This document shows positions 36,006 through 59,928 of a stretch of DNA of 64,000 nt, piece by piece. A model generated the notes under the pieces. The model was not told the origin of the DNA, made no database searches, and worked only from the letters and a program-made list of their open reading frames with translations. Where the stretch lies: positions 960,001-1,024,000 of the forward strand of contig OY970172.1 in the NCBI GenBank assembly GCA_963707655.1. The letters run 5' to 3'. Each line of letters opens with the position of its first letter. The first letter of the stretch is position 1. This stretch comes from an uncultured bacterium (GTDB lineage: Bacteria > Babelota > Babeliae > Babelales > Vermiphilaceae). A program made the position numbers and the translations under genes.

Positions 36006-36082
36006 GTGCCCGTAGCTCAGCTGGATAGAGCGACAGACTTCTAATCTGTAGGTCGTAGGTTCGACTCCTACCGGGCACACCA
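36006..36082 (+). tRNA. tRNA-Arg(TCT); integration target
   Basis: GTGCCCG acceptor, anticodon arm ACAGA-CT-TCT-AA-TCTGT, GGTTCGACTCC, encoded CCA. Confidence 0.97.
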
Positions 36083-37537
36083 CTTTCCAGTTTTTACTGT
36101 TTCCAATATCTCATTAAATACCGGTTTCAGCTGTATATCGAGCTTTTCATCTTTATAAGAGCAGTTCGAAACTAGAATATTGATCAATCGGCGTTTTTGT
36201 TCCGCATCTTGCTTTTGAAACAGTACAATCGCCTTTCTTGAGAGTTCTAAGACCAGATTCGCATTTTCAAGATAATTCTTATCGGCTCTTTGAAGCGCCA
36301 GAAGCTTTAAAGCTAAACGCTCTTTTTCTTCTATCCATTTTGATGCATGAGACTGCCAGAATTCTTCACTAATTTTTTTATCAATTTTATCCAGATATGC
36401 TTGATCGATTCTGTTCTGAAGAAATTTTATTTGTCGCTCTGTTTGTTGAACCAGCTTATTATGATAATCAACCTTTTCCTTTAAGCTCGATCGAAGACTC
36501 TCCATAATGATTTCCCGAGCTTGCTCTGAAATAGCTATATTTCTTAATATCCCCTCAAGCTGCGTTTCAAGAATCTCTTGCTTCAAATAAACCTGCTGAC
36601 AGTTGCCTTTATGACCGGTACATCTGTAGTAGATATATTTCTCTTTTTTTATTTCGGCAGTTAAAGAACAACCGCATATACCGCATCTGATTAAATTGGT
36701 ATAAGGAAATAGGCCTTTTCTTGATTTGTTTTTGTATGGATTCTTAAGCATTGTCTGAACTTTATGAAATAGCTCCTTACTCACAATAGCTTCATGAGAG
36801 GCATTTTCATACCGTTTCCCTCTCCAAGAAAAAACCCCGGTATAGAAATCATTTTTTAAAATGATTTCTACATTGCTGCTGTAAAAATTTTTACCATTTC
36901 TATAGATCATGCCATCAGCAAGCATCTTTTTGCGTAAATTGAGTAAAGAGTAAGATCCTGTTGCATATAATTCAAACATTTTCTTAATGAATAGTGCAGC
37001 ATCAGGGTCAACAACGATAACCTTTTTACCATCAACTTTGGCATTCAAATAACCATAAGGAGCAATCGATGGGTAAGTTCCCTGAGCAGCTTTTTCCTGC
37101 ATACCCTTTTTCACTTCTTCTGAGAGATTATCGATGTAATTTTTGGCCATCAAGGCCTTGATGCCAAAAATGAATTTTTCATTAGAGCGAGATTCTCGGC
37201 TTAGAGTAGAGTTTTCTTTCACAAGGTGAATTGTAATATCCGTTTGTGAAGTCAACTTATCAATTAAAGCATAATCAGACATGTTACGTGTAAGTCGATC
37301 TGTTTTTTCAACAAGAATGTGTTTTATGGACTGATCTTCATGAATAAGATTCAGCATTTTGTTGAACTGTGTACGCCCGGTCTTTTTTGCAGTTTCAACA
37401 TCAGTAAATTTCCCCACAACCGTATAGCCATTCTTTAGGGCATACTCATTCAAGATCTTGAGTTGGGCGGGTATGGAAAACCCTTCGGCTTCTTGGTCTT
37501 TAGAGGAAACTCGAGCATAAATGAGCGCTTTGTTCAT
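36068..37537 (-). CDS. Large serine recombinase (integrase)
   Basis: Catalytic YARVSS, DRLTR, recombinase domain PYGY, Zn ribbon CGICG/YYRC, coiled coil; stop codon lies inside the tRNA. Confidence 0.95.
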   Translation of the reverse strand: MNKALIYARVSSKDQEAEGFSIPAQLKILNEYALKNGYTVVGKFTDVETAKKTGRTQFNKMLNLIHEDQSIKHILVEKTDRLTRNMSDYALIDKLTSQTDITIHLVKENSTLSRESRSNEKFIFGIKALMAKNYIDNLSEEVKKGMQEKAAQGTYPSIAPYGYLNAKVDGKKVIVVDPDAALFIKKMFELYATGSYSLLNLRKKMLADGMIYRNGKNFYSSNVEIILKNDFYTGVFSWRGKRYENASHEAIVSKELFHKVQTMLKNPYKNKSRKGLFPYTNLIRCGICGCSLTAEIKKEKYIYYRCTGHKGNCQQVYLKQEILETQLEGILRNIAISEQAREIIMESLRSSLKEKVDYHNKLVQQTERQIKFLQNRIDQAYLDKIDKKISEEFWQSHASKWIEEKERLALKLLALQRADKNYLENANLVLELSRKAIVLFQKQDAEQKRRLINILVSNCSYKDEKLDIQLKPVFNEILETVKTGKWCAR

Positions 37538-37548
37538 AGCTGTATACC

Positions 37549-37716
37549 TTATTTGCTCAAAATTCCTATTTTTTTGTCCTCTTCCAGGTGGTTTTTGATC
37601 GCTTCAACCACCAATTCCTTCATAGTTTTACCTTTAATGGCGGCAAAAGCTTTAAACTTTTTATGGTCTTCTTCAGGGATATCAATGGTAATTCGAGATA
37701 AATTTTGTTTTTGCAT
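37549..37716 (-). CDS. Small ribbon-helix-helix (ParG/CopG-like) DNA-binding protein, 55 aa
   Basis: Manual translation MQKQNLSRITIDIPEEDHKKFKAFAAIKGKTMKELVVEAIKNHLEEDKKIGILSK; ends 11 bp before the LSR start; below the ORF-track cutoff. Confidence 0.8.
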   Translation of the reverse strand: MQKQNLSRITIDIPEEDHKKFKAFAAIKGKTMKELVVEAIKNHLEEDKKIGILSK

Positions 37717-37800
37717 AAAAAAATCCAATATTTACGAGACATTTTAATAGCTAATGATACAATAAAGATATAAAGAAATAAAGAAATACTTGGGGGTTTT

Positions 37801-38664
37801 GTGAATATATTCAGATATATATCGAATTTATTTGATAAGGGCGTCAATTTAAAGCCCTCTATTGAGAAAAAAATCACTATCAATAATGAACCTGATTCTA
37901 AAGAGACACGCAAAAAGAGTGCTCAAAGGGTCAGAAATATCTATGATCCCTTGTCTACCAAGCCTTATAAGCTAAGTCGTAGCAAAATAGAGCTTTTCAT
38001 GCGTTGTAAGCGTTGTTTTTATATTGATCGTCGATTAGGAGTTGGGCATCCTGACGGATATCCATTTTCTCTAAATATTGCAGTCGATGAACTTTTGAAA
38101 AAAGAATTCGATATTTTTCGTCTAGAACAAAAGCCGCACCCTCTCTGCCTCGAAAATAATGTAAATGCGATTCCATTTAAGCACGAAAACTTAGAAAGCT
38201 GGCGTAAATCGCTCCATGAGGGCGTTCAATACCATGTTCCTAATACAAATCTTCTCATCCATGGTGGCCTTGATGATGTTTGGATTAATCAGGATACTGG
38301 TGAACTTCTAGTCGTTGATTACAAAGCTACCTCAAAAAACGGAGAAATAACTCTAGATGCCGATTGGCAAATTGGTTATAAGCGCCAAGCTGAAATCTAT
38401 CAGTGGCTTTTACGTAAAAATGACTTCACGGTATCTAATACTGCCTATTTTGTTTACTGCAATGGTAAAAAAGACATGCCACTGTTTGATAAAAAACTGC
38501 ACTTTGAGGTTACCTTACTGCCTTATGTAGGGAACGATTCGTGGGTGGAAGAAGCAGTTAATGGAGCTTACAGATGTCTTCAAACTAACACTATCCCTGC
38601 AGCAGAAAAGTCATGTGACTATTGTCAGTATTGGAACGGTGTCACTAACCACTTAATAAAATAA
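37801..38664 (+). CDS. PD-(D/E)XK nuclease (RecB/Cas4-like)
   Basis: LSRSKI..CKRCFY, GGLDDVW, VVDYKAT, QAEIYQWLL, C-terminal CDYC. Confidence 0.85.
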   Translation: MNIFRYISNLFDKGVNLKPSIEKKITINNEPDSKETRKKSAQRVRNIYDPLSTKPYKLSRSKIELFMRCKRCFYIDRRLGVGHPDGYPFSLNIAVDELLKKEFDIFRLEQKPHPLCLENNVNAIPFKHENLESWRKSLHEGVQYHVPNTNLLIHGGLDDVWINQDTGELLVVDYKATSKNGEITLDADWQIGYKRQAEIYQWLLRKNDFTVSNTAYFVYCNGKKDMPLFDKKLHFEVTLLPYVGNDSWVEEAVNGAYRCLQTNTIPAAEKSCDYCQYWNGVTNHLIK

Positions 38665-38699
38665 CCATCAAATTTAAAAGATGTATTGATAAAGTAAAT

Positions 38700-41600
38700 A
38701 TGATCTCTCCAAAACACCTCAAAGCTACTTATTTTTCCTCAAAAGGACTATTTCATAACCTTTCTAGCTTTACAAGCTTGGAAAATCGGATAGCCAATCT
38801 TCCTGAAATTGAACGTGGAGATGCCTTTGAAGTCTTTGCTGAGGCCTATCTCAAAACCCAATCCCTTCATCAAGTCGAGGAGATATGGCCAGAAAAGTCG
38901 CTGCCTCAAAGTCTACGTGAATTACTTAATATTCCTTCTGACGCTGGTATCGATGGGGTTTTTAAGACATCTTCTGGTCATTATAAGGCTTACCAGGTTA
39001 AGTTTAGGTCGAACAGAGGCTCTCTAAGCTGGGGTGGTGATAGTTTGGGTAATTTCTTTGGTCAGGCTGATAGAGTGAGTGAGCGAATACTTTTTACCAA
39101 TTCAATGGATTTATCCGATCTAGCTGCCTCTCGCGTCAATTTTTATTCTATCAAGGGGAATGAGCTAGATTGCCTTGAGCCTTCAGATTTTAAAACCATA
39201 GAAGATTGGCTTAAAACGGGAGTTGCTCGACGAGAAAGGCTAAAGCCCAAAGACCATCAGCAACAAGCTATAAATGCGATTATAGATGAACTTAGCGTAA
39301 AAGATCGAACGACGGCTATTATGGCGTGCGGAACTGGCAAAACCCTTGTCGCGCTTAGAGCTGCTGAAAAACTTCAAGCCAAGACGATCCTGGTTCTGTT
39401 GCCATCACTTGCCTTAATAAGGCAGACGCTTCATGATTGGGCGCGGGATCATGGCTGGGAGAAATTTCACTTTTTATGTGTTTGTTCTGACCATACTGTC
39501 GTTAATGATGAAAGCGAAATGATCTTGTTTCAGCGAGATTTAGATTTTGCTGTTACAACTCAACCGGAAGAAATTGCAGCTTTTCTCAACAATGGTAATG
39601 TAGCGCCTAAAATTATATTTTCTACCTATCAATCCTGTCGAATGGTAGCCCAAGCGATGCCAGGCAATTTTGCTTTTGATCTAGCTATTTTTGATGAAGC
39701 ACATAAAACAGCTTCTCGTTTGGCGACAAATCATGCTTTTGCGTTAAGCGAAAACAATATTGCAATCAAGAAGAGATTATTTTTAACTGCAACACCCCGA
39801 CACTATAACATTGATGTAAAAGACAAGTTTGGGGATAACCAGCTAGTTTTTTCGATGGATGATGAGACTATTTATGGCCGTGTCGTGTATAAACTTTCAT
39901 TTAGAGCTGCCGTTGAGCAGGGCCTCATCTGTGATTACAAAGTACTTATCTCCGTAATCACCTCTGATATGTTGAATCGCGAGCTGCTTAAGCGTGGCGA
40001 GGTATTGATTGATGGTGATATCATCAAGGCGCAACGCATTGCAAATATTTTAGCGATACAAAATGCCGTAGAACAATATGGCGTTAAGCGAATCTTCTCC
40101 TTCCATAGTTCGATATCAGCGGCTAAATCATTTACCGCTAAAACCAATGAAGGCGTAGGCGCATACCTGACTGATTTCGCGACGATGCATGTGAGCGGTG
40201 AGATGTCGTCAAGCAAGCGAGATGCTATTTTGAGTGAATTTCGCGATGCAGAGAAGGCACTAATTTCAAACGCTCGTTGTTTAACTGAGGGTGTAAACGT
40301 ACCAGCAGTTGACATGGTTGTTTTTGTTTCACCTAAGAGAAGTAAAGTTGATATTGCACAGGCTGCCGGTCGTGCAATGCGTAAGCATCCAGGCAAAGAG
40401 CGTGGCTATATTTTGATCCCATTATTCATGCAAGACGCAGGACAAGAAGAGCTAGAGCAGGCGCTTGCAAAAACAAAATTTGATACAGTCTGGGACGTGC
40501 TTCAGGCAATGTGCGAACAGGATGAGAGTTTAGTGGAAATTATCGCTAAGCTCAGAGAAGCTCGTGGCAGGATACTTGGTGTTAATGATAGTAGGCTGAG
40601 GGAGCGCGTAGAGATACTTGGACCAGAACTCGCCTTAAAGAGCTTGCGTGATGCAATTACAACAAGGATGATTGATAGGCTTGGTTTATCTTGGGATGAA
40701 AGATTTGGACAACTGGTTAGATTTAAAGAAGAGAGTGGCCATTGTTTGGTCCCTAATCGATATCCAGAAAATCCTGGTCTTGGGCAATGGGTACAAAAAA
40801 ATCGATGGGATTACAAAAAAAATGCGCTGGGATCTGAGCGTATTAAAAGATTAAACGAGATAAATTTTGCGTGGGATTATGAGGAGGCAATATGGAATAC
40901 ACGATACTTAGATCTTTGTCATTTTCAACAAATTAACGGTCATTGTAATGTGCCTCGTAATTATCATGATAGGCAGTTGGAATATTGGGTAGGCACTCAG
41001 CGAGTTTCCTATAAAAAAGGTAAGTTATCCAGTATTCAGATAAAACAGTTAGAAAAAATAGGGTTTGTCTGGGATTGTATTGAGGAAAACTGGCATAGCA
41101 ACTATTCGATGCTCGCTGAATTCAAACAAAAAAATGGTCATTTTGTCGTTCCAAAAGATACGCGCGAGAATAAGCAATTAGCTACTTGGGTTTCTGCTCA
41201 GAGAAAACTTCAGAAAAAAGGTAATCTATCTTCAGAAAAAATTTATTTACTTGAACAAATTAACTTTATGTGGGATCCGGTAAAGGCAATCCTCGAGGAG
41301 AGATTTTCCCAAATACTAAGTTTTTTTGAAAAAAATGGACACTGTAATGTTCCCGACAGCTATGACGAGATAGTTCCTGGATTGTGTTCCTGGCTTCGGT
41401 CTAGAAGAAATTTATATCGGAAAAATTTGCTAGATATTGATCAGATAAAACGCCTAGAGGAAATGAAAATTAAGTGGGACCCTTTTGATGCTAATTGGGA
41501 AGAGCAATTCGAAGCTTTAGTTCTTTACAAGTCGAAGAACGGCCATACCTCTGTGTCTAAAAAATATCATGAAAGCCCATCTTTGGGATTATGGGTGTTA

Positions 41601-43160
41601 CGTCAACGATCAAAATATCGTGAGGGAAGCCTAGCAAAAGAACGCGTTGAGCGACTAAATAGCTTGGGCTTCGAGTGGGAATTGCCTAAATTAAAAAAGG
41701 ACGTTGTAGCACAAGAAAGAAAGTCATATTCTGAGATTTGGGAAGAAAGATTTATCTTGTTGCAGCAATATAGAGATATCCATAATCATTGTAATGTACC
41801 TCAAAATTATCAAGATAAATCGCTTGCCATGTGGGTTGGAACGCTGCGTACACTCTATAACAAAAGGAGTCCACGACTTTCGGCTGAAAAAATCAAGAAG
41901 CTTGATGCCATTGGATTCGACTGGGAGCCTACGACATCTCAGTGGGAAAATATGTTCTTAAAATTGCGTGAATTTAAACGCGTTTACGGACATTGTAATG
42001 TGCCGAGAAGCCAACGGCTTCTTGCTACATGGGTGGGCGTGCAACGTAAGCAGCATAAGAAAAATAGCATGATCCCTACCCGCATAAGTAGATTGAATGA
42101 AATCGGTTTTATATGGGACGTTAAAAAAGAATACTGGCATAAAATGTTTCATGAATTAAAGAAATTTATTGAAATTAATGGGCACTGTAATGTTTTTAGA
42201 ACAGGCAAGCTGGGCAATTGGGTTGCAAACCAGAGAGGTAATTATAAACGAGGAACGTTACCGTCTGCTCAAATTAACAAACTTAATGAAATAAATTTTG
42301 TTTTTGTCCCCTATGCTACAGCTTGGGAGAAAAATTATAGTGATTTATGCCTGTTTGTTAGGGAAAATGGGCATTGCATAATTACGTCTGAAACCCTTGT
42401 GAGTTCCCCACTCCTTACTTGGGCTCATAACCAACGTTCTGATTACAAAAATGGGAACCTATTCATAGAACAAATTAAAAAACTTAATGATATTGGTTTT
42501 GTTTGGGATTTCTTGGCTTATAAATGGGAAAAAAACTTTGAGGAGTTGCTGAAATTCAAAAGTGTTCATGGGCATTGCAACGTTCCTGGTAAGTTCAAAG
42601 AAAACATTTCCTTATCTCATTTCGTTGTTGCACTTCGTAAAAATTATAAAAAGGGAATTTTGTCTAAAGAACAGGTTAAACGGCTAAATGATCTCGGCTT
42701 TATTTGGGATGTTTTAGAAGAGCAATGGGAAAAGAAATATCAAGACTTAATCAAGTTCCATGAAATTTATAGCCACTGCAATGTTCCAAATGATTATAGT
42801 GATCAAGGGTTACTCTCTTGGATAAAAAATCAACGTACTTATAAAAAATTAGGCAAGTTATCTCCAGAGCGAGTTTGCAAACTAGATGCAATTGGGTTTG
42901 TTTGGTATGTATTAGATACTTCTTGGGATGATGCATTTACAGCTTTATGTTTATTTAAGAACACTTATGGGCACACTAAAGTTCCTGCAACGCGCGTTAT
43001 TAACAATATTGCTTTAGGTAATTGGGTCAGAACGCAACGTGCAGCTCATCAAAATAATAAGCTTACTAAAGAACGTTTTGAAAAATTACAGAGCATAGAT
43101 TTTTCTTGGGCCATTATGGCACGATCTCAAAAACAAACATCCAAACTATCTATGGAGTAG
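38700..43160 (+). CDS. Restriction-endonuclease-like domain + SF2 (DEAH) helicase + 12 helicase-associated (HA) repeats
   Basis: N-terminal GDAFE..DAGIDG..YQVKF; MACGTGKT, STYQS, DEAH, TATP, LTEGVNVP, QAAGRAMR; twelve W..........GHCNVP...WV..QR...L..IGFVW units. Confidence 0.9.
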   Translation: MISPKHLKATYFSSKGLFHNLSSFTSLENRIANLPEIERGDAFEVFAEAYLKTQSLHQVEEIWPEKSLPQSLRELLNIPSDAGIDGVFKTSSGHYKAYQVKFRSNRGSLSWGGDSLGNFFGQADRVSERILFTNSMDLSDLAASRVNFYSIKGNELDCLEPSDFKTIEDWLKTGVARRERLKPKDHQQQAINAIIDELSVKDRTTAIMACGTGKTLVALRAAEKLQAKTILVLLPSLALIRQTLHDWARDHGWEKFHFLCVCSDHTVVNDESEMILFQRDLDFAVTTQPEEIAAFLNNGNVAPKIIFSTYQSCRMVAQAMPGNFAFDLAIFDEAHKTASRLATNHAFALSENNIAIKKRLFLTATPRHYNIDVKDKFGDNQLVFSMDDETIYGRVVYKLSFRAAVEQGLICDYKVLISVITSDMLNRELLKRGEVLIDGDIIKAQRIANILAIQNAVEQYGVKRIFSFHSSISAAKSFTAKTNEGVGAYLTDFATMHVSGEMSSSKRDAILSEFRDAEKALISNARCLTEGVNVPAVDMVVFVSPKRSKVDIAQAAGRAMRKHPGKERGYILIPLFMQDAGQEELEQALAKTKFDTVWDVLQAMCEQDESLVEIIAKLREARGRILGVNDSRLRERVEILGPELALKSLRDAITTRMIDRLGLSWDERFGQLVRFKEESGHCLVPNRYPENPGLGQWVQKNRWDYKKNALGSERIKRLNEINFAWDYEEAIWNTRYLDLCHFQQINGHCNVPRNYHDRQLEYWVGTQRVSYKKGKLSSIQIKQLEKIGFVWDCIEENWHSNYSMLAEFKQKNGHFVVPKDTRENKQLATWVSAQRKLQKKGNLSSEKIYLLEQINFMWDPVKAILEERFSQILSFFEKNGHCNVPDSYDEIVPGLCSWLRSRRNLYRKNLLDIDQIKRLEEMKIKWDPFDANWEEQFEALVLYKSKNGHTSVSKKYHESPSLGLWVLRQRSKYREGSLAKERVERLNSLGFEWELPKLKKDVVAQERKSYSEIWEERFILLQQYRDIHNHCNVPQNYQDKSLAMWVGTLRTLYNKRSPRLSAEKIKKLDAIGFDWEPTTSQWENMFLKLREFKRVYGHCNVPRSQRLLATWVGVQRKQHKKNSMIPTRISRLNEIGFIWDVKKEYWHKMFHELKKFIEINGHCNVFRTGKLGNWVANQRGNYKRGTLPSAQINKLNEINFVFVPYATAWEKNYSDLCLFVRENGHCIITSETLVSSPLLTWAHNQRSDYKNGNLFIEQIKKLNDIGFVWDFLAYKWEKNFEELLKFKSVHGHCNVPGKFKENISLSHFVVALRKNYKKGILSKEQVKRLNDLGFIWDVLEEQWEKKYQDLIKFHEIYSHCNVPNDYSDQGLLSWIKNQRTYKKLGKLSPERVCKLDAIGFVWYVLDTSWDDAFTALCLFKNTYGHTKVPATRVINNIALGNWVRTQRAAHQNNKLTKERFEKLQSIDFSWAIMARSQKQTSKLSME

Positions 43161-44228
43161 TTTTTTAAGCGCAACAATTTCTTCTGGCGCTAAATCGAAT
43201 TCTTTGTTTTTATCTAATGATCTCATTATTTCTCCCTGCCTATATTCATCTACGCTGCCATAGCTGGTGAATGTTGTTAATGGATTATTATGACCTATAT
43301 TTTGACTCCATACCTTAAATTCTTCAGGAGTTTTGCACAACTTGTAACCTAATTGAGCTACGGTGTGACGAAATGAATGCGGATTGTAGTAGGTTAGTCC
43401 AGCATTGTGAAATGCCTCTTCTATCACTTTTCTCAATGATGTAGTTGATTTCCATGGAGTCGAACCAAGCAGCGTCCTGCTGAATTTATCATTAGCGCCC
43501 AGTGACAATGCGGTACAAGGAAATAATGGAGCTTCATCATCAAATAGCTTTTCCTTCTTTAAGAAATTTACCCACTCAATGAAGATTTGCTTAAGGAAAT
43601 CGCCTACAGGAAAAAAGTAGGTAATAATCATCTTGCTGTTTTTTGTTTTTACCTCGTCCGGACGTTGCTCTATGCGTTGCTCGTCCAAAAGTATGTGCTT
43701 AAGTTTGAATGAAGCTACTGCCTGAATTCTTGCGCCACTAATGGCCATAAAAGCTATGAGAGCACGGTTCCTTTTTTGAATCTCAGTTTCTGCCGGCATG
43801 CTTTTTACCACATGTTCTATTTGTTCCAAGGTAGGGTAACGTTTAGGTTTTTGAGTTCTTGCTATTCTGATGTCTTTATCTTGTAATTTGAAATACGCAA
43901 TTTCACATGAGCGTATTCTGCTTCTGTACCCAGGCTGCGTCACCAGCCACTTGAAAAAGTCACTTAGGCTTCTTGTGGCATGTAGCAGGTAGGTTTTACT
44001 GACAAGCGTTTCCGTGCGTTTTGATTTCTTTTGCATAAGATGTTTTTTGAATCCGATAGCGTCATTCTTGTTAAATAACTTGAAGCTTTTAAAGCCTGTG
44101 TATTCCTCATAAATATACAGGTAATTTTGGATGTTAATAGCAGTTGAGCTGCTCTTGCCATTAGCCTCCTTTTCCCATTCCAAATACTTACGTTTAATTC
44201 GTTCGTTTTCAGCGTTATATTTGATCAT
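43146..44228 (-). CDS. Tyrosine recombinase
   Basis: GARIQA, KTK, HSFRH, IGH, TFTSYG catalytic set. Confidence 0.9.
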   Translation of the reverse strand: MIKYNAENERIKRKYLEWEKEANGKSSSTAINIQNYLYIYEEYTGFKSFKLFNKNDAIGFKKHLMQKKSKRTETLVSKTYLLHATRSLSDFFKWLVTQPGYRSRIRSCEIAYFKLQDKDIRIARTQKPKRYPTLEQIEHVVKSMPAETEIQKRNRALIAFMAISGARIQAVASFKLKHILLDEQRIEQRPDEVKTKNSKMIITYFFPVGDFLKQIFIEWVNFLKKEKLFDDEAPLFPCTALSLGANDKFSRTLLGSTPWKSTTSLRKVIEEAFHNAGLTYYNPHSFRHTVAQLGYKLCKTPEEFKVWSQNIGHNNPLTTFTSYGSVDEYRQGEIMRSLDKNKEFDLAPEEIVALKKLLHR

Positions 44229-44240
44229 TTTAGTCTCCTT

Positions 44241-44732
44241 TTATTTGATGGTGGTAGCGGGGGTGTTGTCACACTCTATTAAATTTTTTTGCTCTAGCCC
44301 TTCTATATGGAAAATTTTCGTAAAGGTATCTATTTTTGAAGGCGATATTGTTCTATTGATGCTCGATCCACATATCTCACATATACCAACGAGATTTGTT
44401 CGTTTATTGTTATGGTGAATACGGACTTTGTTATCTTTGGTGTACCTTGCCTTCTGGCATTTGCAGCAGAACAATTGGTTTTCAGCGCAAGGTTTTTTTC
44501 TGCCAGCATTTCTTACACTTAGAAAGTCGATTAAATCTTGTCCCCATATCAAGTACGGTAGTTGATCATCTATTTTCTTGAGCCCCGTCTTTAACCAGTC
44601 GCTAATGGTACCTTTATCAACCTTGAGAAGCTCTTTGATCTCTTCTATGGAATAGGAGTTTGCGCTTCTGATGATTCTTGTATTAAATCTTTTCCGAAAC
44701 TTCTTTACGTTTTTCTGCTTTTTCTTGTACAT
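44241..44732 (-). CDS. Helix-turn-helix protein with C-terminal zinc ribbon
   Basis: YSIEEIKELLKVDKGTISDWLKTGL (excisionase-like HTH); CCKC and CEICG. Confidence 0.75.
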   Translation of the reverse strand: MYKKKQKNVKKFRKRFNTRIIRSANSYSIEEIKELLKVDKGTISDWLKTGLKKIDDQLPYLIWGQDLIDFLSVRNAGRKKPCAENQLFCCKCQKARYTKDNKVRIHHNNKRTNLVGICEICGSSINRTISPSKIDTFTKIFHIEGLEQKNLIECDNTPATTIK

Positions 44733-44863
44733 CTTTCATATCCCACTCGAGCAATAAATCAAAAAGATCAATTAATGGCTGGATATCAGATTTGATTTCT
44801 AGCCTATCTCCTTGCTGAGTTATGCTTTGCTTTTTTATGTCCATCGGTACTACTCAACAAAAT

Positions 44864-45136: not shown

Positions 45137-45218
45137 AATCTTTACCTTTTGGGTTAAGGGTTAAGCTTTAACTGAAGACAAGGTAATAAAAAGGGTTCGG
45201 GCCCGGCTGGGCCCAGAA

Positions 45219-46235: not shown

Positions 46236-46339
46236 CTTCTTTACCTCTTAAAATACGTTTTTTATATTCTAATCGGTAAAAGTAGATTCTCTAAGCAAAA
46301 AGTACCTGTTCTATCGCATTTATGTTAGTCTGTTCGAAG

Positions 46340-49304: not shown

Positions 49305-49339
49305 CAAAAGTTGCTGAAATAGTCCGATAGGGCACACCA
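49305..49339 (+). other. att junction 2
   Basis: CAAAAGTTGCTGAAATAGTCCGATA-GGGCACACCA. Confidence 0.9.
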
Positions 49340-51483: not shown

Positions 51484-51485
51484 AT

Positions 51486-52040
51486 ATGCATTGGAAACAG
51501 AAGCTTGGAACGCTGGAGAAACAGAAAAAATGGGATGCTGCCATAGAATTAATGATCCATGTTATTGATGAGAATTCTGGGTCTATAGATCCGTATATTT
51601 ATATGAATTATTTACTTATGAATCTTTTGGTAGAAGAAGATTATGACAATGATAAATATAGCTATTACAAATTATTAATAAAAAAATATTTTGACGAATC
51701 TTATGCTAAATTTTCTGATAATGCTGAGTATCTTTTTTTCACTGCTTCCACCGCTCTAATGTCTGAGTGGCATTTTGATATTGATGTAAAAGATTATGAT
51801 GCAATGTTTAAAAAAGCTCTAGTCTTAGAACCCGATAATCTTCTTTATCAAGACTATTATTACACTATGCTAGATAAAACTATCCCAAGCAATAAAAAGG
51901 CCGCAGTAGAATATGCAAAAAAAATACTGGAACCAAAGTCTTCTATTCAAATAATATTGAATTCCAAAGGCGCTATAGGAGAACGCCTTTTGGGATTAAT
52001 GACAAATTGGAGCTTAAGGATTCTTGGCATGAAGCCTTGA
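51486..52040 (+). CDS. Candidate immunity protein for toxin 2
   Basis: Starts 2 bp after the toxin stop; helical; paralogue of 56795-57355, which follows the paralogous CT. Confidence 0.78.
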   Translation: MHWKQKLGTLEKQKKWDAAIELMIHVIDENSGSIDPYIYMNYLLMNLLVEEDYDNDKYSYYKLLIKKYFDESYAKFSDNAEYLFFTASTALMSEWHFDIDVKDYDAMFKKALVLEPDNLLYQDYYYTMLDKTIPSNKKAAVEYAKKILEPKSSIQIILNSKGAIGERLLGLMTNWSLRILGMKP

Positions 52041-52157
52041 GGCTCTTCCAAGCACACCTTAACAAAGTATATAGGGATAAAATATCCTTGATGGCTTTTT
52101 TGCTAATGACCAATATCACCCAAAGACCATATTGCCAAAACTAACGAATTGTCCACA

Positions 52158-52192
52158 GAGAAGTTGCTGAAATAGACCGATAGGGCACACCA
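52158..52192 (+). other. att junction 3
   Basis: GAGAAGTTGCTGAAATAGACCGATA-GGGCACACCA. Confidence 0.9.
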
Positions 52193-52404
52193 CTCTTCGT
52201 TTATTCCGCCGTCGCCAAGGCTATGGCGGACAGGCTGGGGGCAAGATAGAGCTCGGCGAAAGCCTGAAGAAGCTCGTGAGAGCGAAGACAGGCAAGCTTC
52301 GTCTGGCTGCCGCCAGCAACTTTTTTACCCATTCTTTGCATCTTCATAAATCCTTGGTATATCTACTAAGACTTTTTCCAGGAATCTAACTTTCAGGGAG
52401 AACT

Positions 52405-54303
52405 ATGAAGATTATTATTTTGATCGGCATTCTACTACAATCAGCAGCTATCCAAGCCGTGTATCCCACTAGAGAGTTAACAACAAACTGGGATATCTCA
52501 ACGCGAAGTCGCGGCATATCACAAAATAGTCTTGATCACATGAACCGTCCTTAATATGTAAAGGGCATTGCCTGCCTTGACCAGTGTCATGCGAAGCGCG
52601 ACTCTGCGCGACCATCTTCTATACTTTTCACTAATCCAAAACAATGTGCTTATTGGACATCATCTGATTATTATGCCGCTCTAGCCCATGACTATGGCAT
52701 ACCAATTACCATTGAAAACGCAGGGAGCATAGCAGAAGAGTTGCGTTATTACCATTGCCCTCATGATCAAAGAAATTTTTTGTATATCCCCGAATACGTC
52801 ATTACCAATATTATGCATCAAGAGAAGCTGTACGCTCATAAAAATTTCATCGATTTTATAAAAAAATTTGATTGGTATGAGGATGAGTTATTGGCTCTGC
52901 ATGATAAAGTTATGCACAGACACGATTCTTGGAAGTCATTTTTTAAAAAGAAGTTTTCAGATCAGGTGATAGCTGCACTAGTATCTGAGCGCAATCGAAT
53001 TGTTAACGCAAGAAGAGACAAAAGAAAGCGCGAAGTTGAAGCCACCGTCATAAAAAATAATTTTCAAAGCGAGTTACTTGGCATCCAAGGGATGGTCAAT
53101 GAGCAACAAGAGTTGCATGAGATTGCCAATACATATAACTTGCATAACAAAAATCATTATGAAACTCGTCTGGCCGCGCTTGAAGATGTTTTGAACAGCA
53201 GAAGCTGCACGCAGCAATCGTACAGCTTCAACAATGATGCATTGACCTTGCTTTCACAAGTAGGGTGCAGTGCTGAACAGTATAAAACTAATTATGGTAA
53301 TCAATTGCAGCAAGTCATTCACCGTGAATGCATCGATATTGTCTCACAGGCAGCGCAACTTTCTGTGCATTCTCCCCTCTATGATTATAAAAATTCATTA
53401 GTTAATTTTACCGATTCGGCTCGTTCATATAATCAGGAAGGCTCGTCTGGCAGAGCGATGCAAATCAATGATTTTTGCTATGCATTACTCGATTATGGCT
53501 CGGCCATTGTTGAGGGCATTGCCTGTGGTGTCATTGGCGCAGCCAAAGATATGATTAACCATCCAGTTCAGACAGCGCTGTGCGTAGTGGCCGGTGAATA
53601 TGTGTTGGCCTATCAATTGCTTAAAGTCACGACTAACCTTGCCTCCATCGGAATATCCTATGCCTTTGATAAAGAAGCTGGCGAGCAGCAATGGCATGAA
53701 TATATTGAGCCGATAACGAGCGTGATCAGCGCTATCAAAAACAAAGAGCTGACTCTGCGAGATGGCATTAAAGGAGCCGTCACCCTTGGCACCGGTATGT
53801 ATGCGCAAGGCAAGATGCTTAAAGGTCTGAATTCTTTTTACAACACGACAAAAGCAAAAGCTCTTGAATTCGCTAAAAATAATCCGTTGGTCACTCCTTT
53901 TGAGTATATGACCACTCAAGAGGGAGTGTTGTTTAAGGTTACCGATAAAACAAGTAAAACTGGTCCTTGGCAACAAAATGATATCGAATGGATTCCTTAT
54001 GGCCACAAGCACATTGCTAGTAAAAAAATGAGTTGGAAAGATATTCTTCAATTCACAAAAAATGGCCCTGCCAAATATAAACCAGAAATTAATGTTGAAC
54101 TCTTAGAAACAATGGCATGGCAAAAGGGAACAATGATTCCTGGTAAGAACTGGAAAATTTATCAATGTGAAGACATAATTGGTGCAAACAATGGCATTGA
54201 AACTAACTTTATGATAGTAAAAAATAGTATGGCTACAATTCATGGACATCCAATAACCCCGCAAGAATTTAAACAATACATGAATATGATAGGAAAATTA
54301 TGA
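52405..54303 (+). pseudogene. Polymorphic toxin 3, nonsense mutation at codon 50
   Basis: ATG 52405 matches the copy 2 start; CAA->TAA at 52552-52554; rest of frame open; distinct CT (GHKH...GPAKYK...IHGHPIT). Confidence 0.85.
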
Positions 54304-54614
54304 AACTTAATATAAACCTGAATAATGGGATTATTGTCTATGATGAATTTAATATTGATCCCAATCTCCCGCTAAAAGATCAAATTATGGAATTGCAAGA
54401 AGATCTTCTACAAATACAATATGATAATAATGTAGTTATTGACGTTGGATGGTATCCTGAACTTGATCCATCCGGAAGCTTTATTATTAATATAATAAAA
54501 GATTCTGATTGGTCTCATCCTATATATAAAAAAACAGTTAAATTAAAAAATATTGTTGCTGAACTACAAAAAGCAATTGATTTGGCTCTCACATTAAATG
54601 GTCGATCTATCTAA
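54300..54614 (+). CDS. Candidate immunity protein for toxin 3
   Basis: ATGA overlap with toxin stop; acidic; EDLLQ...DVGWYP motif. Confidence 0.78.
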   Translation: MKLNINLNNGIIVYDEFNIDPNLPLKDQIMELQEDLLQIQYDNNVVIDVGWYPELDPSGSFIINIIKDSDWSHPIYKKTVKLKNIVAELQKAIDLALTLNGRSI

Positions 54615-54654
54615 ACACAATTTCTTGACCTGATTGAGAACATCAGCTTCAAAA

Positions 54655-54689
54655 GAAAAGTTGCTGAAATAGACCGATAGGGCACACCA
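54655..54689 (+). other. att junction 4
   Basis: GAAAAGTTGCTGAAATAGACCGATA-GGGCACACCA. Confidence 0.9.
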
Positions 54690-54864
54690 GCCTTCGCTTA
54701 TTCCGTTGTCGCCAAGGCTATGGCTGACATGGCCGGGCAAGAGAAGACTCGGCAAGCTTCGTCTGGCTGCCGCCAGCAACTTTTTTACCCATTCTTTGCA
54801 TCTTCATAAATCCTTGGTATATCTACTAAGACTTTTTCCAGGAATCTAACTTTCAGGGAGAACT

Positions 54865-56788
54865 ATGAAGATTATTATTTTGATCGGCATTCTACTACAA
54901 TCAGCAGCTATCCCAAGCCGTGTATCCCACTAGAGAGTTAACAACAAACTGGGATATCTCAACGCGAAATCGCGGCATATCACAAAATAGTCTTGATCAC
55001 ATGAACCGTCCTCAATATGTAAAGGGCATTGCCTGCCTTGACCAGTGTCATGCGAAGCGCGACTCTGCGCGACCATCTTCTATACTTTTCACTAATCCAA
55101 AACAATGTGCTTATTGGACATCATCTGATTATTATGCCGCTCTAGCCCATGACTATGGCATACCAATTACCATTGAAAACGCAGGGAGCATAGCAGAAGA
55201 GTTGCGTTATTACCATTGCCCTCATGATCAAAGAAATTTTTTGTATATCCCCGAATACGTCATTACCAATATTATGCATCAAGAGAAGCTGTACGCTCAT
55301 AAAAATTTCATCGATTTTATAAAAAAATTTGATTGGTATGAGGATGAGTTATTGGCTCTGCATGATAAAGTTATGCACAGACACGATTCTTGGAAGTCAT
55401 TTTTTAAAAAGAAGTTTTCAGATCAGGTGATAGCTGCACTAGTATCTGAGCGCAATCGAATTGTTAACGCAAGAAGAGACAAAAGAAAGCGCGAAGTTGA
55501 AGCCACCGTCATAAAAAATAATTTTCAAAGCGAGTTACCTGGCATCCAAGGGATGGTCAATGAGCAACAAGAGTTGCATGAGATTGCCAATACATATAAC
55601 TTGCATAACAAAAATCATTATGAAACTCGTCTGGCCGCGCTTGAAGATGTTTTGAACAGCAGAAGCTACACGCAGCAATCGTACAGCTTCAACAATGATG
55701 CATTGACCTTGCTTTCACAAGTAGGGTGCAGTGCTGAACAGTATAAAACTAATTATGGTAATCAATTGCAGCAAGTCATTCACCGTGAATGCATCGATAT
55801 TGTCTCACAGGCAGCGCAACTTTCTGTGCATTCTCCCCTCTATGATTATAAAAATTCATTAGTTAATTTCACCGATTCGGCGCGTTCATATAATCAAGAA
55901 GGCCTGTCTGGCAGAGCGATACAAATCAATGACTTTTGCTACGCATTACTCGATTATGGCTCAGCCATTGTTGAGGGCATTGCCTGTGGTGTCATTGGCG
56001 CAGCCAAAGATATGCTTAACCATCCAGTTCAAACAGCGCTGTGCGTAGTGGCCGGTGAATATGTGTTGGCCTATCAATTGCTTAAAGTCACCACCAACCT
56101 TGTATCTATTGGCATAAGCTATGCTTTTGATAAAGAAGCTGGGGCGCAACAGTGGCATGAATATATTGAACCAATCACCAATGTTATAAGCGCCATTACC
56201 AACAAAAAATTGTCCCTGCGTGACGGCTTTAAAGGAGCCGCCGCCCTTGGCACCGGTATGTATGCGCAAGGCAAGATGCTTAAACGACTGAACTCTTTTT
56301 ACAATACAACAAAAACAAAAGCTCTTGAATTCGTTAAAAATAATCCTTTGGCAACTCCTGCCGAATACATGACTACTTCTGACGGGGTATTGTTTAAAGC
56401 AACACAAGAGTCTTTATGCAATAAGTCTCAAAAAGACATCGAAAGTTATTTTAAACAAGAAGTACCGCAAGGCCAGTCAAACTTGCCTACTTATTCTCTT
56501 CCATCTAAGATTGAACAAGCCGTAAAATATGCTACAACCAATGAAAAACTTGAATATTTTTTTAAAAAAGAAATGCATGGGCTTGAGCCATTGCTAAAAA
56601 CAATGGATAACAACAAAGAAAAAGTTGTTCGTGAAGTTATCGGGTTGTTGTCAATTAACAATGATATGCCTAGATTTGGTAAGTTTGATGGAATACCTAT
56701 AAATATAAATGGATATATTGTTCATGCACGGGGATTTGTTCATGATGATGTTATTAAACTTGGCACTATCTTTATTCCGCAAGGGTAA
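54865..56788 (+). pseudogene. Polymorphic toxin 4, +1 frameshift in the signal peptide
   Basis: ATG 54865; GCTATCCCAAGCC here versus GCTATCCAAGCC in copies 2 and 3 (extra C at ~54912-54914); CT paralogous to toxin 2. Confidence 0.85.
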
Positions 56789-56794
56789 ATAACT

Positions 56795-57355
56795 ATGTCT
56801 TGGAAAGAGAAGCTTAGAACATTAGAGCGACAAAAAGAATGGGACGCTGCTATAGAACTAATGATCCATACCATTAATCACAACCCAGATGACATGGATG
56901 CATATATATATATGAATTATTTACTCATGAATCTTTTGGTAGAGGAAGATCATACTAGCATTGATGAAAACAAGTTTGCTTATTATGAAACGCTGACCAA
57001 GCATTACTTCGATGAGTCTTATGCTAAATTTTCAAATAATGCAGAATATCTTTTCTTCACTGCAACAACAGCTGTCATGTCTGAGTGGTTTTTTGGCATT
57101 GATGTGCCGGACTATGAAGCTATGTTTCAAAAAGCTATGCTTCTCGAGCCCAACAACCTCCTTTATCAAAGAATTTACTATATGGATCTTGATAAAACTA
57201 TCCCTGGTAATAAAAAGGCTGCAATGGAATATGCTAAAAAAATTTTAGATAAAGATTCTCCTATTCAAAAAACATTGAAGTCTAAAGGCGCTGTTGGCGC
57301 GTATTTGCTAGAATTGATGACAAATTCAAGTTTGGAGATGCTCGGCATGAAATAA
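56795..57355 (+). CDS. Candidate immunity protein for toxin 4
   Basis: Intact; shares WDAAIELMIH, YIYMNYLLMNLLVEED, YFDESYAKFS with 51486-52040. Confidence 0.78.
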   Translation: MSWKEKLRTLERQKEWDAAIELMIHTINHNPDDMDAYIYMNYLLMNLLVEEDHTSIDENKFAYYETLTKHYFDESYAKFSNNAEYLFFTATTAVMSEWFFGIDVPDYEAMFQKAMLLEPNNLLYQRIYYMDLDKTIPGNKKAAMEYAKKILDKDSPIQKTLKSKGAVGAYLLELMTNSSLEMLGMK

Positions 57356-57413
57356 CTAATAACTTGTAGCAAAAAGTATCTGCTGATCCTGATTCATGCT
57401 AATCTGGTCAAGT

Positions 57414-57448
57414 AAAAAGTTGCTGAAATAATCCGATAGGGTACACCA
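57414..57448 (+). other. att junction 5 (one mismatch in core)
   Basis: AAAAAGTTGCTGAAATAATCCGATA-GGGTACACCA. Confidence 0.85.
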
Positions 57449-57682
57449 GCTTTCGCTAAAGCTTCAGCTGGCAGACAGGTCGTCTGTACCATTGTAGAAA
57501 AACTTTAATAGTAAATAGCGAAGACGGTCCGAAGAAGCCGCGGGTATAGACGGACTTTTTCCAAAAAAGTAAATCTCTAGCAATTTTTGTCCGTAACTTA
57601 TTAGTCTTACATTGATCAGCAAGGTCACAAAACATCGGCATAATGAACCCTCACATTGTACTTGGATGAGGCATTGTGATCG

Positions 57683-58189
57683 ATGAAAAACTGGCAACAA
57701 CACTCTATACTTGAGGTCTTATGTATGTTGATACGCATTAATGCTTTTACCCAAAACCATAGTAATACAATACCTAAAAAATATACCTGTGATGGTGAAG
57801 GAATTTCCCCCGAAATTAGTTGGGATGAAGTACCAGAAAAAACAGAAAGCTTTGCGCTTATTATGGAAGGTCTTGATGTTCCCAATAGAAGCAATGCTTT
57901 GGTGTTATGGGTTATCTACAATATTCCTGGCGCTCTACGAACCATTGCCTCAAACTCTATTCCCGAACAAGCTAAAGTTGGCATTAATGATTTGGGGAAA
58001 AAGCGATATAGCGCCCCATGCCCAAAACCGGGACCGCATCCTCAAAAATATCAAATTACCTTATATGCTCTCGATACAACATTGATATTCTTGCCCGATG
58101 AGACAACAAAGGAAGATTTAGTGAAAGCCATGAAAAAGCATGTTTTGGCAACAGCAGAAAATATTGGTTTTTGTGAAAGACATGGATAA
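57683..58189 (+). CDS. YbhB/YbcL (PEBP) family protein
   Basis: IPKKYTCDGEGISP, SFALIM, WVIYNIP, YSAPCP, LYALD; usual DPD and HW motifs altered; start uncertain. Confidence 0.85.
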   Translation: MKNWQQHSILEVLCMLIRINAFTQNHSNTIPKKYTCDGEGISPEISWDEVPEKTESFALIMEGLDVPNRSNALVLWVIYNIPGALRTIASNSIPEQAKVGINDLGKKRYSAPCPKPGPHPQKYQITLYALDTTLIFLPDETTKEDLVKAMKKHVLATAENIGFCERHG

Positions 58190-58226
58190 ATTGCATCTAA
58201 GTTGAGAGTGCTAAGAAGGCTGTTGT

Positions 58227-58784
58227 TTACCTATTGGTATCCACTGAGTACCCAAAAGCTCTTAATATATCTTTGGTCTGAGTTTCTGGTGTAACATTAT
58301 CAATAATGTATACGATAATTCCTTGCTCATTAATCAAAAAAGATTTGCGCAACGCATAGAGGTTGCCCATTGCATGTTGATCAGTGCCATACATATGCGC
58401 GACTTCATGCTTCATATCTGATAATAAGATGAATGGGAGTCTTTCTTGTTCTTTAAATTTTTTGTGTGATTCAGGAGAATCATAGCTGACCCCAATGACT
58501 ACGATGTCATGTTGCTTGAACTGATCAAAAGAATTGCGCAACTCGCATGCCTCTTTCGTACAGCCCGGCGTTCCATCTTTTGGATAAAAATAGAGAACTA
58601 TTTTTCTGCCCTTGAATGAGGCAAGTGAGCGTGAAGCTCCTGTTTCATCAGGTAGGGTGAATAAAGGAGCCGCATCACCAACTTTAACTTTTTCAGCCGG
58701 TGTACGTTTGTATTTCCCCAACATAAAAATACAGGCTATTGCAATCAAGCCCAAGATAATGAGCGACATTAAAAGAGTATTCAT
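58227..58784 (-). CDS. bcp: BCP/PrxQ peroxiredoxin with N-terminal membrane anchor
   Basis: VLYFYPKDGTPGCTKEAC, GVSYD, LPFILLSD. Confidence 0.9.
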   Translation of the reverse strand: MNTLLMSLIILGLIAIACIFMLGKYKRTPAEKVKVGDAAPLFTLPDETGASRSLASFKGRKIVLYFYPKDGTPGCTKEACELRNSFDQFKQHDIVVIGVSYDSPESHKKFKEQERLPFILLSDMKHEVAHMYGTDQHAMGNLYALRKSFLINEQGIIVYIIDNVTPETQTKDILRAFGYSVDTNR

Positions 58785-59252
58785 ACTATTTTCCTCTGCA
58801 TCAGCTCAGCTATTTTTCAATATTTTCTTTAACTCATCTTACCAATGGTTTCTGTTTTTAAAAATGGTTCTCAAAGCAACTTTAATGGAAAGTTATAATT
58901 AAAATCAACAACATTCATAAGTATTTCATGGTTCGCAGGAACAATCATGAGAATCCGCAGAAATGATCACATATCTCTAGCAAGTAGTATTCGCCTGATG
59001 TCGAATAAATTAATATTTTTCTGTACAGAAGTTGGGTGAAATAAGCCGACAAATGCATAATAATCTGCGCAGAAATATCGAGTGACTTTTTTTGATTTCT
59101 GTGTGGGAACTATGAAGATTATTATCCTGAATTGAAGATTCTCTATATTGGCTTTTAAATGGCTGACAATTTTAGTGCGTTCATGGAAACTCTTTATTTT
59201 TCACTTCAAAAATATGTATAAGATATAAAATAATATTTATAGAGGAGTTTAC

Positions 59253-59807
59253 ATGAAAAAACAATTAGAAGGACTCAAAGTCGCGATCCTTTGCGATACC
59301 GGTTTTGAACAAAATGAAATGACAGAACCTAGAAAAGCATTAGATCAAGCCGGTGCTGAAACAGTGCTTGTTTCTCCTGTATATGGGAAAATAAGAGGCT
59401 GGATTGATGACCAATGGAGAGATGAATTTCCTGTCGACCTTGATTTGAATAATGCAAATCCAGATGATTATGATGCTCTACATCTTCCGGGTGGGGTAAT
59501 CAATCCTGATAAACTACGCAGATTTGAATCGGCAATTGCTTTTATTAAAGCATTTGTTGACGCTAAAAAACCAATCGCAGCCATTTGCCACGGGCCTTGG
59601 ACCCTCATTAATGCACATGGCGTGAAAGGAAAAACCCTCACTTCATGGCCCTCGATTAAAATCGATCTCGTCAATGCCGGTGCAAACTGGGTCGATAAGC
59701 CAGTGGTTAGAGATGGTCTTTTGGTAACGAGCAGATGGCCCGCAGATATAGCTGCATATAACCCCGTGATGATAGAAATGTTCGCGGAAGTACTAAAGAA
59801 AAAATAA
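59253..59807 (+). CDS. PfpI/DJ-1 family protein
   Basis: GFEQNE, LPGGVINPDKLR, AICHGPW, NAGANWVD, VTSR; GAGGAG RBS. Confidence 0.92.
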   Translation: MKKQLEGLKVAILCDTGFEQNEMTEPRKALDQAGAETVLVSPVYGKIRGWIDDQWRDEFPVDLDLNNANPDDYDALHLPGGVINPDKLRRFESAIAFIKAFVDAKKPIAAICHGPWTLINAHGVKGKTLTSWPSIKIDLVNAGANWVDKPVVRDGLLVTSRWPADIAAYNPVMIEMFAEVLKKK

Positions 59808-59869
59808 GAAAGATCATCACTAAAAGTATCGGCCCAACCTGACTCATGTTGACCTGATCACAATCACAA

Positions 59870-59928
59870 CAAAAGTTGCTCAAGTAGTGCGCACATAAGT
59901 GCCCCGATAATCCAATAGGGGCACACCA
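59870..59928 (+). other. att junction 6, degenerate, with internal inverted duplication
   Basis: CAAAAGTTGCTCAAGTAG...GTGCCCC-gataatccaata-GGGGCACACCA. Confidence 0.75.

Follow-up and report, generated by a model that had tools for sequence, protein, structure and literature searches.

How does a row of toxin and immunity genes come to lie between repeated copies of a tRNA end? The question is raised by a locus in the genome of an uncultured bacterium that probably belongs to the Babeliales (Dependentiae), whose genomes are small and which have been little studied. The genome is a single contig of 1.09 Mb with 41% GC and 38 tRNAs, and is 88.6% complete by marker genes. The stretch analysed, called the window below, covers 64,000 nucleotides of it (contig OY970172.1, positions 960,001 to 1,024,000, forward strand). 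In the window, a tRNA-Arg(TCT) gene is followed by a 10.3-kb element encoding a large serine recombinase (LSR), at 36083–46374, and then by five units, four of which carry a toxin gene. The locus is probably a composite island at this tRNA, formed by a family of LSR elements and the accretion of recombinase-less cassettes, and reshuffled by homologous recombination.

The tRNA-end core, its arm and its trailer

The tRNA-Arg(TCT) gene lies at 36006–36082 on the plus strand (ARAGORN). Its last 10 nucleotides, 36073–36082, are the repeated core, and its 3′ end serves as attL of the LSR element. The exact core, GGGCACACCA, starts at 36073, 46365, 49330, 52183, 54680 and 59919, and a copy with one mismatch, GGGTACACCA, at 57439. 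Allowing up to one mismatch, the window contains nine matches versus 1.55 expected, and nine were reached in none of 100 shuffles. The exact 10-mer occurs six times in the whole genome, every time at this locus. The window scan, the shuffles and the genome count confirm the core copies, positions and mismatch listed in the initial annotation. The core-to-core spacings of 10292, 2965, 2853, 2497, 2759 and 2480 bp, which it had given as the sizes of the element and the units, follow from these coordinates. Two further matches were rejected. The one-mismatch match at 8919 is unrelated and on the minus strand, and the core-like GGGCACACTA at 42969, considered as an internal element end, lies inside the HA-domain coding sequence of a helicase.

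Every non-tRNA copy of the core is preceded by a conserved arm, AAAAGTTGCTGAAATAGWCCGATA, within about 90 nt of weaker homology. The arm had been described before each copy, which holds, with two additions: an insert of about 24 nt interrupts the arm at the 59919 core, and farther on, at 60738–60825 on the plus strand, stands a decayed, coreless remnant that is 77% similar to the unit 2 arm. Together with the core mismatch at 57439, these show an arm decay that grows with the distance from the tRNA. In all, six arm and core sites stand 3′ of tRNA-Arg(TCT) in the same orientation, plus two at a second locus of the genome. A conserved leader follows four of the core copies.

The LSR gene (36068–37537, minus strand) encodes 489 residues; the 3′ ends of this gene and of the tRNA overlap by 15 nt. 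The protein contains the Resolvase (PF00239, 2.5e-27), Recombinase (PF07508, 5.5e-17) and Zn-ribbon (PF13408, 8.2e-09) domains and matches the phrog_95 integrase at 3.4e-78. Its relatives were sought in a set of 80 family genomes of many genera, 0.8–1.7 Mb in size (one of 2.4 Mb), of which 41 gave matches at E≤1e-30. Orthologs with 56–70% identity were located at 12 loci in 12 other genera, the one in G059 being a partial copy with an internal stop. At all 12 loci the tRNA 3′ end abuts the LSR 3′ end. The targets are Arg-tct at five loci, Glu-ttc at four, Ala-ggc at two and Arg-acg at one.

The ends of nine ortholog elements were examined over 20 kb each. In five of them (G077, G024, G003, G050 and G093), the right end is AAGTTnnnnAAATAGTCCnnnA followed by the last 9–10 nt of the element's own tRNA, so that an attR motif, AAGTTnnnnAAATAGTCC, with the tRNA end is conserved in other genera. 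The right-end site of G019 is doubtful, and G017, G007 and G080 have no arm and tRNA-end site within the 20 kb. At attL, the sequence nTTTCYAGWTTT follows the tRNA in most of the nine elements, with G003 a clear exception. The element-side right arm of attL in the window, CTTTCCAGTTTTTACTG (36083–36100, plus strand), fits this pattern. The arm motif is identical at Arg and Glu tRNAs, thus the arm belongs to the element. The arms of the units fit the element-end consensus as well as the LSR element's own attR does. The extended arm of about 90 nt also includes the motif GCAAAWAGTAYYTGYT, which is present at the element ends of G077 and G024 too, indicating that the unit ends derive from the right ends of LSR elements. 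By sequence comparison, the arm is the element-side half of the LSR attachment site. The 12 ortholog loci and the five element ends uphold the proposal that arm and core are recombinase sites of the family of the adjacent LSR element.

The attR of the LSR element (46288–46374, plus strand) comprises the extended arm, AAAGTTCTAAAATAGTCCGATA and the core, and is followed by a tRNA 3′ trailer. The crossover of the 10.3-kb element lies at the left edge of the core, and attL restores the tRNA. The LSR is predicted to be capable of integration by attP × attB and of excision by attL × attR recombination.

The host side of the junctions was identified from the sequences behind the tRNA genes. In the 90 nt compared behind each tRNA, the motif NN[CT]TN[CT]G[CT] stands at +1 after 20 of the 38 tRNAs; its background rate is 0.9% per position. 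It opens conserved repeats of about 100 nt that come in two types; examples in the window are 28320–28412 (minus strand, behind tRNA-Ser) and 46375–46500. In nhmmer searches these trailer repeats were found almost only directly behind tRNAs and behind arm/core sites, and the leader of unit 2 matched the tRNA-Tyr trailer with E = 1e-22. Similar trailers follow tRNA ends in G077, G024 and G005. A search of Rfam with the leaders and one type-A trailer returned tRNA matches alone and no family for the trailer. Judged by these matches, the leader is a tRNA 3′ trailer repeat, spread over the genome and not specific to cassettes. The trailer of the toxin units breaks off after GCCAGCAAC and is followed by a T-run, with terminator-like hairpins at 46481, 49450, 52303 and 54763; the conserved region upstream of the toxin start comes after the T-run. 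The fold of the leader was not better than those of shuffles (z = −1.36), and a sigma-70 scan gave 44 sites versus 46.6 in shuffles, with no excess.

Because the leaders are tRNA trailers, the sequence to the right of every junction is of host type, tRNA end plus trailer, and the internal junctions are of attR type. This agrees with the suspicion in the initial annotation that they are attR-like hybrids. Its common layout for four units, of core, leader, toxin, immunity gene and arm, was likewise seen, except that the hairpin leader belongs to the genome-wide trailer family.

The units and the toxin family

Each unit runs from a core and a leader resembling a tRNA trailer through the cargo to about 90 nt of sequence from the right end of an LSR element and the arm. 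All five lie on the plus strand. Unit 1 (46375–49339) starts with a type-B trailer leader (46375–46584). An intact toxin gene (46585–48489, plus strand) encodes 634 residues with a Colicin D C-terminus, and is followed by a 156-residue immunity candidate (48491–48961), a 68-residue open reading frame (ORF, 49003–49209), and the arm and core (49253–49339). Unit 2 (49340–52192) opens with the leader and encodes an intact toxin of 643 residues (49552–51483, plus strand), whose C-terminus has no Pfam match, and an immunity candidate of 184 residues (51486–52040), ending in arm and core at 52096–52192. Unit 3 (52193–54689), which also opens with the leader, has a toxin gene (52405–54303) broken by TAA at codon 50 (52552–52554), an immunity candidate of 104 residues (54300–54614), and arm and core at 54603–54689. 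Unit 4 (54690–57448) has a leader with a 38-nt deletion, a toxin gene (54865–56788) broken by a +1 C frameshift at codon 17 (about 54913–54915), a 186-residue immunity candidate related to that of unit 2 (56795–57355), and arm and core GGGTACACCA at 57362–57448. Full-length toxin genes had been assumed throughout, which does not hold for units 3 and 4.

Unit 5 (57449–59928) has no toxin. It has the trailer-like start GCTTTCGCTAAAGCTTCAGCTGGCAG, PEBP (57683–58189, plus strand), AhpC/TSA (58227–58784, minus strand) and DJ-1/PfpI (59253–59807, plus strand), and the interrupted arm and core at 59862–59928. Among relatives, G024 carries MepB and a Cass2/GyrI-like gene flanked by two successive attR sites at a distance of 1.85 kb, and G005 has a 2.8-kb remnant without LSR at tRNA-Arg(tct), with both ends kept. 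A second array in the same genome, described below, includes a ParDE/PhzF segment. These cargoes show that a toxin bank is not the rule for such units. No recombinase was found by Pfam among the ORFs of units 1–5 or of the second locus.

The toxins of units 1–4 are about 630 residues long, with an N-terminus judged by eye to be signal-peptide-like (Sec). In the alignment, the first 515 or so residues are conserved, and the last 110 or so diverge sharply after GVLFK. The unit 1 C-terminus matches Colicin D at 5.7e-22 in Pfam; the C-termini of units 2 and 4 are related to each other, and so are the ORFs downstream of them. The small ORF 3′ of each toxin gene is the candidate immunity gene. Pfam gave nothing above its cut-offs for the C-termini of units 2–4 or for any immunity candidate. 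Leaders and N-terminal parts of units 2–4 are 97–100% alike. Arms and C-terminus/immunity parts are 67–76% alike between units, and each C-terminus/immunity part is paired with its own diverged element-end sequence of about 90 nt.

Sixty-two homologs of the toxin were found, 26 of them with one of the five families Ntox21, Colicin_D, Ntox17, EndoU_bacteria and Ntox35; the others have no precomputed Pfam domain. Conserved N-terminal parts thus go with variable C-terminal toxin domains, which is the pattern of polymorphic toxins. All 62 are unnamed or 'hypothetical' except one with the automatic label 'thiaminase', and two are named by NCBI as 'Candidatus Babeliales bacterium' proteins. The N-terminal part matches no Pfam family and has no RHS, CdiA or MafB domain. 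A model of the toxin (pLDDT 74.6) has a helical conserved N-part; it gave no match in the PDB at E≤0.001, and the Atlas fold search yielded sub-threshold leads alone (PT-TG, MafB, 0.82–0.84). A scan of genome contigs with the toxin alignment produced 79 pattern matches, none of them confirmed. In full-text searches of the literature, we found no paper linking Dependentiae with polymorphic toxins or with these elements. The work thus describes a toxin family without a name in the sources searched, along with the conserved tRNA-trailer repeat.

The most conserved stretch of the N-part is residues 369–421 (in the unit 2 toxin, 49552–51483), a Gly/Ala-rich, hydrophobic, helical stretch of low model confidence. 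It may be a membrane-insertion segment.

The toxin family also occurs in genome G010, once after tRNA-Arg(cct) and as a tandem pair after an LSR element at tRNA-Glu. In the latter locus (L027, G010:C1:758000–777999, at 6761–17700), a distant LSR of 33% identity lies at tRNA-Glu, then come two tandem toxin/immunity pairs. A C-terminal fragment is duplicated there (13541–13664 and 17516–17639, 90% alike), with no tRNA-end repeats. In the former (L028, G010:C1:55000–70000), a partial copy of tRNA-Arg(cct), from the anticodon stem to the T arm, lies on the minus strand at about 8620–8880, 125 nt after the tRNA. A trailer-like hairpin and GGGCATACCA come next, directly 5′ of the toxin gene.

Rearrangement and origin of the array

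The second array of the genome has the order tRNA-Arg(tcg), trailer, a 3.4-kb segment, arm and GGGCGCACCA, trailer, a toxin unit, and arm and GGGTGCACCA. The segment contains two unknown ORFs, RelB/ParE (ParDE) and PhzF. In the toxin unit, a GIY-YIG ORF is followed by a fifth toxin, whose C-terminus is Ntox17, and by an immunity candidate. The array ends in a remnant of a toxin upstream region, and no recombinase lies within 18 kb.

Three short metagenome contigs, L069, L070 and L071, 93–96% identical in the common parts, allow a comparison with near strains. L070 has an Ntox17 C-terminus, immunity gene, arm, GGGCGCACCA, trailer, GIY-YIG and a toxin of the unit 2–4 type. L069 has the same right-hand unit, but its left C-terminus/immunity part is absent from the genome of the window. 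In L071, a PhzF-side arm leads into GGGCACACCA and a type-B trailer, and the toxin that comes next has a C-terminus of the Ntox21 family. Different units thus flank one arm/core joint in near strains, and the homology switches inside arm and core. Compared with the joints of the window genome, the three contigs show that unit neighbours differ between strains. These joints and the second array bear out the proposed modularity of the units.

The variant of the core (CA, CG or TG at positions 4–5) tracks the right-hand unit in every comparison. GGGCGCACCA stands 5′ of the GIY-YIG leader in three of three contexts; behind the PhzF arm the two positions read CG or CA according to its neighbour, and behind the Ntox17 arm TG or CG. 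The arm and the tRNA differ up to tRNA position 66. Taken together, these place the exchange within A|GGG. Such a point suits the 2-bp crossover of a serine recombinase, though it is no proof of one.

Three side observations concern the second locus. The GIY-YIG nuclease ORF (121 residues, L014 7722–8087, G000:C1:315721–316086) lies inside the trailer/leader of the toxin unit and travels with the unit in L069 and L070. Two PhzF paralogs with 87% amino acid identity lie beside the two arrays (G000:C1:314421–315356 and 1024669–1025481). L071 (4303–4483) joins the PhzF-A arm, the toxin unit and a unit-4-like immunity gene to a PhzF-like 3′ end, a layout that hints at an exchange between the two loci.

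Metagenomes from soil, peat, wetland and permafrost contain fragments of the stretch. Parts of it were found in 20 public runs, the best with 0.25–0.27 of the sampled words. Four runs were compared with the stretch, giving contigs of 150–585 nt at a depth of 2–7, and the parts of the stretch that they leave uncovered provide no evidence either way. Two joints that skip sequence were seen, 47310→50287 (depth 3.3) and 52194→54780 (side 33), which are not decisive.

In the favoured reading of a composite island, the units would be LSR cassettes mobilisable in cis or trans, by analogy with the tandem cassettes of the staphylococcal cassette chromosome (SCC) and the Dehalococcoides ssrA islands. 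We infer from the sequence that the recombinase acts on the internal joints. It would excise the element together with a variable number of proximal units by recombining attL with any downstream attR, and would add units at the tRNA-proximal end. Homologous recombination through the near-identical leader and N-terminal DNA of units 2–4 would homogenise the copies and delete between them, and could put an intact 5′ end on the silent toxin copies of units 3 and 4. These copies would form a reserve of toxin ends, with their immunity genes retained.

Several points weigh against this reading. To our knowledge, canonical LSRs recombine only attP × attB, or attL × attR with a directionality factor; an action on attR × attR or attR × attB is an assumption borrowed from the Ccr enzymes. 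The reading does not explain how cargo came to be bounded by a tRNA trailer at the left and an element arm at the right. Dyad symmetry in the rebuilt attP is not significant (13/24, p ~0.16 in a shuffle test), and six other elements score lower. An earlier eye count of 14/25 was dropped as evidence after this test, and the attR sites have no significant dyad symmetry. No excision circle, empty site or unit-number variant was seen among the contigs of 150–585 nt at depth 2–7. The toxin family is mostly without a link to att sites in other genera: of seven loci there, a tRNA lies within 7–12 kb at two and arm/core sites at none. The arm motif occurs six times in this genome, whereas the checked arm/core sites elsewhere number two in G024 and one each in G050, G077 and G005. 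Other matches to the motif in the 79 other genomes are at background, at most two each (controls 0–5 per strand), and the array is known from one genome. Two G091 matches proved to be false positives, inside a coding repeat with no core after them.

A same-genus genome, G001, was compared for an empty site. The ortholog of the upstream gene was found (75% amino acid identity) with no tRNA within 18 kb, thus the synteny is broken. The methyltransferase flank of the locus was not found in G001, and PEBP is not syntenic in four relatives.

The strongest competitor, which we regard as possible but rather unlikely, is that homologous recombination alone made the array. An attR-trailer-toxin-immunity segment would have been duplicated by unequal crossing-over, the LSR being inactive after its own integration. 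C-termini and immunity genes would have been swapped with foreign alleles through the N-terminal DNA and the homology of arm, core and trailer, the arms being passive. The identity of units 2–4 extends over about 1.6 kb, an ample substrate. One low-depth contig, from run X1, links units 1 and 2 at matching positions of their homology (the 47310→50287 joint), and the only difference between L069 and L070 is the C-terminus/immunity part 5′ of the common unit. The tandem toxin pair of G010 exists without arm/core sites. However, homologous recombination alone does not explain why arm and core follow the last of the toxin units as well as unit 5, and flank the unit of the second locus on either side, nor why non-toxin units here and in G024 have the same boundary sites. 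The gradient of arm decay, the core variant that always tracks its right-hand neighbour, and the separate element-end sequence of each C-terminus/immunity part are also left unexplained.

Somewhat less likely still, we consider, is a serine-recombinase counterpart of the integron. Recombinase-less circles with an attR-type site would join the attB of the tRNA, attR × attB giving attB and attR. Each insertion would regenerate the tRNA and a usable attB, and the newest cassette would be the one nearest the tRNA. When the LSR element itself integrates, attB would turn into attL and the array would be closed. The genome-wide trailers would be the common host half-site, which would allow many tRNAs to be used. 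Like an integron, the locus has ordered small gene modules beside a recombinase, with repeated recombination sites between them. The comparison with integrons proper, drawn in the initial annotation, fails in several respects. The enzyme associated with the junctions is an LSR and not the tyrosine recombinase IntI, and its gene lies inside the mobile element and not on a fixed platform. There are no attI and no attC hairpin sites, nor is there a common Pc, while the toxin units have their own leader and upstream region and a terminator-like hairpin.

The LSR element also encodes a tyrosine integrase (43146–44228, minus strand), which might make or use the arm/core junctions in place of the LSR, the 10-nt identity being its overlap region. 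In NBU-type elements at tRNA 3′ ends, the identity is the overlap region of a tyrosine integrase. We think this improbable for the present locus. An identical 10-nt core with an arm of about 90 nt is more like a tyrosine-integrase attP than a site of about 50 bp for an LSR. The integrase gene is intact, lies beside an ORF with a weak HTH_17, excisionase-like match, and has a homolog in the G077 element. Yet among the elements of four relatives scanned by Pfam (E≤1e-4), that of G077 has a tyrosine integrase but those of G024, G003 and G050 gave no match, and all four have the same arm/core ends, which makes the LSR the common enzyme. The LSR is present and adjacent to attL in 12 of 12 loci. Moreover, a 10-nt identity results because the tRNA must be restored when the crossover lies at G67–G69.

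An assembly artefact, by which a repeat was collapsed or expanded, is very improbable: the single-contig genome is metagenome-derived and incomplete, and short reads poorly resolve near-identical repeats of 1.6 kb, but each unit joins a unique C-terminus/immunity/arm part to the repeats, the independent contigs L069 and L070 carry the same kind of toxin-immunity-arm-core-leader-toxin joint, and a 311-nt contig, which may come from the source sample, spans the joint of units 2 and 3 (52116–52426).

Relation to known systems and contents of the LSR element

The ssrA islands of Dehalococcoides are the closest precedent. They lie in tandem 3′ of a tRNA-like gene, bounded by direct repeats of its 3′ end, and islands without an integration module are read as cis-mobilisable and joined by accretion (PMC3146451, McMurdie et al. 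2011). As there, a short conserved motif stands just 5′ of each repeat, and a large serine recombinase, of CcrB type in Dehalococcoides, is encoded on the reverse strand beside attL. The differences are as follows. The target is a true tRNA-Arg, with sister elements at Glu and Ala, instead of tmRNA. The repeat has 10 nt here versus 20 nt there, and the cargo is polymorphic toxin/immunity genes versus dehalogenases. No second small serine recombinase was noted among the annotated genes of the present element. On their host side, the joints consist of a tRNA-trailer repeat that is spread over the genome, and the host itself probably belongs to the Babeliales.

In tandem SCC cassettes, CcrAB excises every combination of cassettes as circles, those without a recombinase included (PMC11470126, Nat Commun 2024). 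As in that account, the sites of an LSR delimit contiguous cassettes behind the 3′ end of a conserved gene, one recombinase-coding cassette being sufficient. SCC elements target rlmH by means of the CcrAB pair or CcrC, whereas here the target is a tRNA and the enzyme the LSR of the element. SCC excision was shown by experiment; for the present array, recombinase activity is a prediction.

Orphan arrays of the rhs, cdi and maf loci consist of a conserved N-terminal part and tandem variable C-terminal and immunity modules. As in these, silent copies could be activated by homologous recombination with an expressed copy. Unlike them, the silent copies in the window retain a complete N-terminal region that a single stop or frameshift disrupts, and recombinase sites separate the modules. 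The toxin itself bears a putative Sec signal and has none of the domains of those three systems.

Integrative and conjugative elements of streptococci, and their cis-mobilisable derivatives, offer another comparison. There, decayed, integrase-less elements flanked by att sites accrete at the 3′ ends of tRNAs or other genes and are mobilised in cis. Those systems use tyrosine integrases and have identical cores and attP-like internal joints, whereas the internal joints of the present array are attR-like.

The architecture of the array therefore has precedent in SCC and in the ssrA islands, and by this analogy toxin/immunity cargo at a tRNA is a variation on it. The locus would widen the range of LSR-driven cassette accretion to targets that are true tRNAs and to a host that probably belongs to the Babeliales. 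It also suggests that polymorphic toxin/immunity modules can be packaged as cassettes bounded by recombinase sites, beyond orphan ends behind a main gene. The locus and its relatives provide a natural set of attL, attR, attB and rebuilt attP sites, in which one LSR clade has been retargeted to Arg-tct, Arg-acg, Glu-ttc and Ala-ggc. This set is useful for the study of how LSR site choice evolves.

The rest of the LSR element consists of cargo and backbone genes. The cargo comprises a Cas4-like PD-(D/E)XK nuclease (37801–38664, plus strand) and a helicase of 1486 residues with 12 HA domains (38700–43160, plus strand). Over its first 620 or so residues, the helicase gives a PADLOC match (2.4e-95) to the helicase portion of type IIG/I restriction enzymes; the HA domains come after these residues. 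From these matches, the region 37801–43160 looks like defence cargo. Besides the tyrosine integrase, the backbone includes an HTH protein (44241–44732) and SpoVG (44864–45136), and the right-end gene encodes a 338-residue protein (45219–46235), all on the minus strand. The G077 element has a tyrosine integrase, SpoVG and a right-end gene of about 370 residues, and the G050 element has SpoVG and a right-end gene of about 400 residues.

The genome encodes a second LSR at G000:C1:250758–252278. No repeat of the tRNA-Asp end of at least 8 nt was found behind it within 37 kb, and its far end was not found. This LSR is 32% identical to that of the island, and its gene converges on tRNA-Asp and adjoins the tRNA 3′ end, as in the island.

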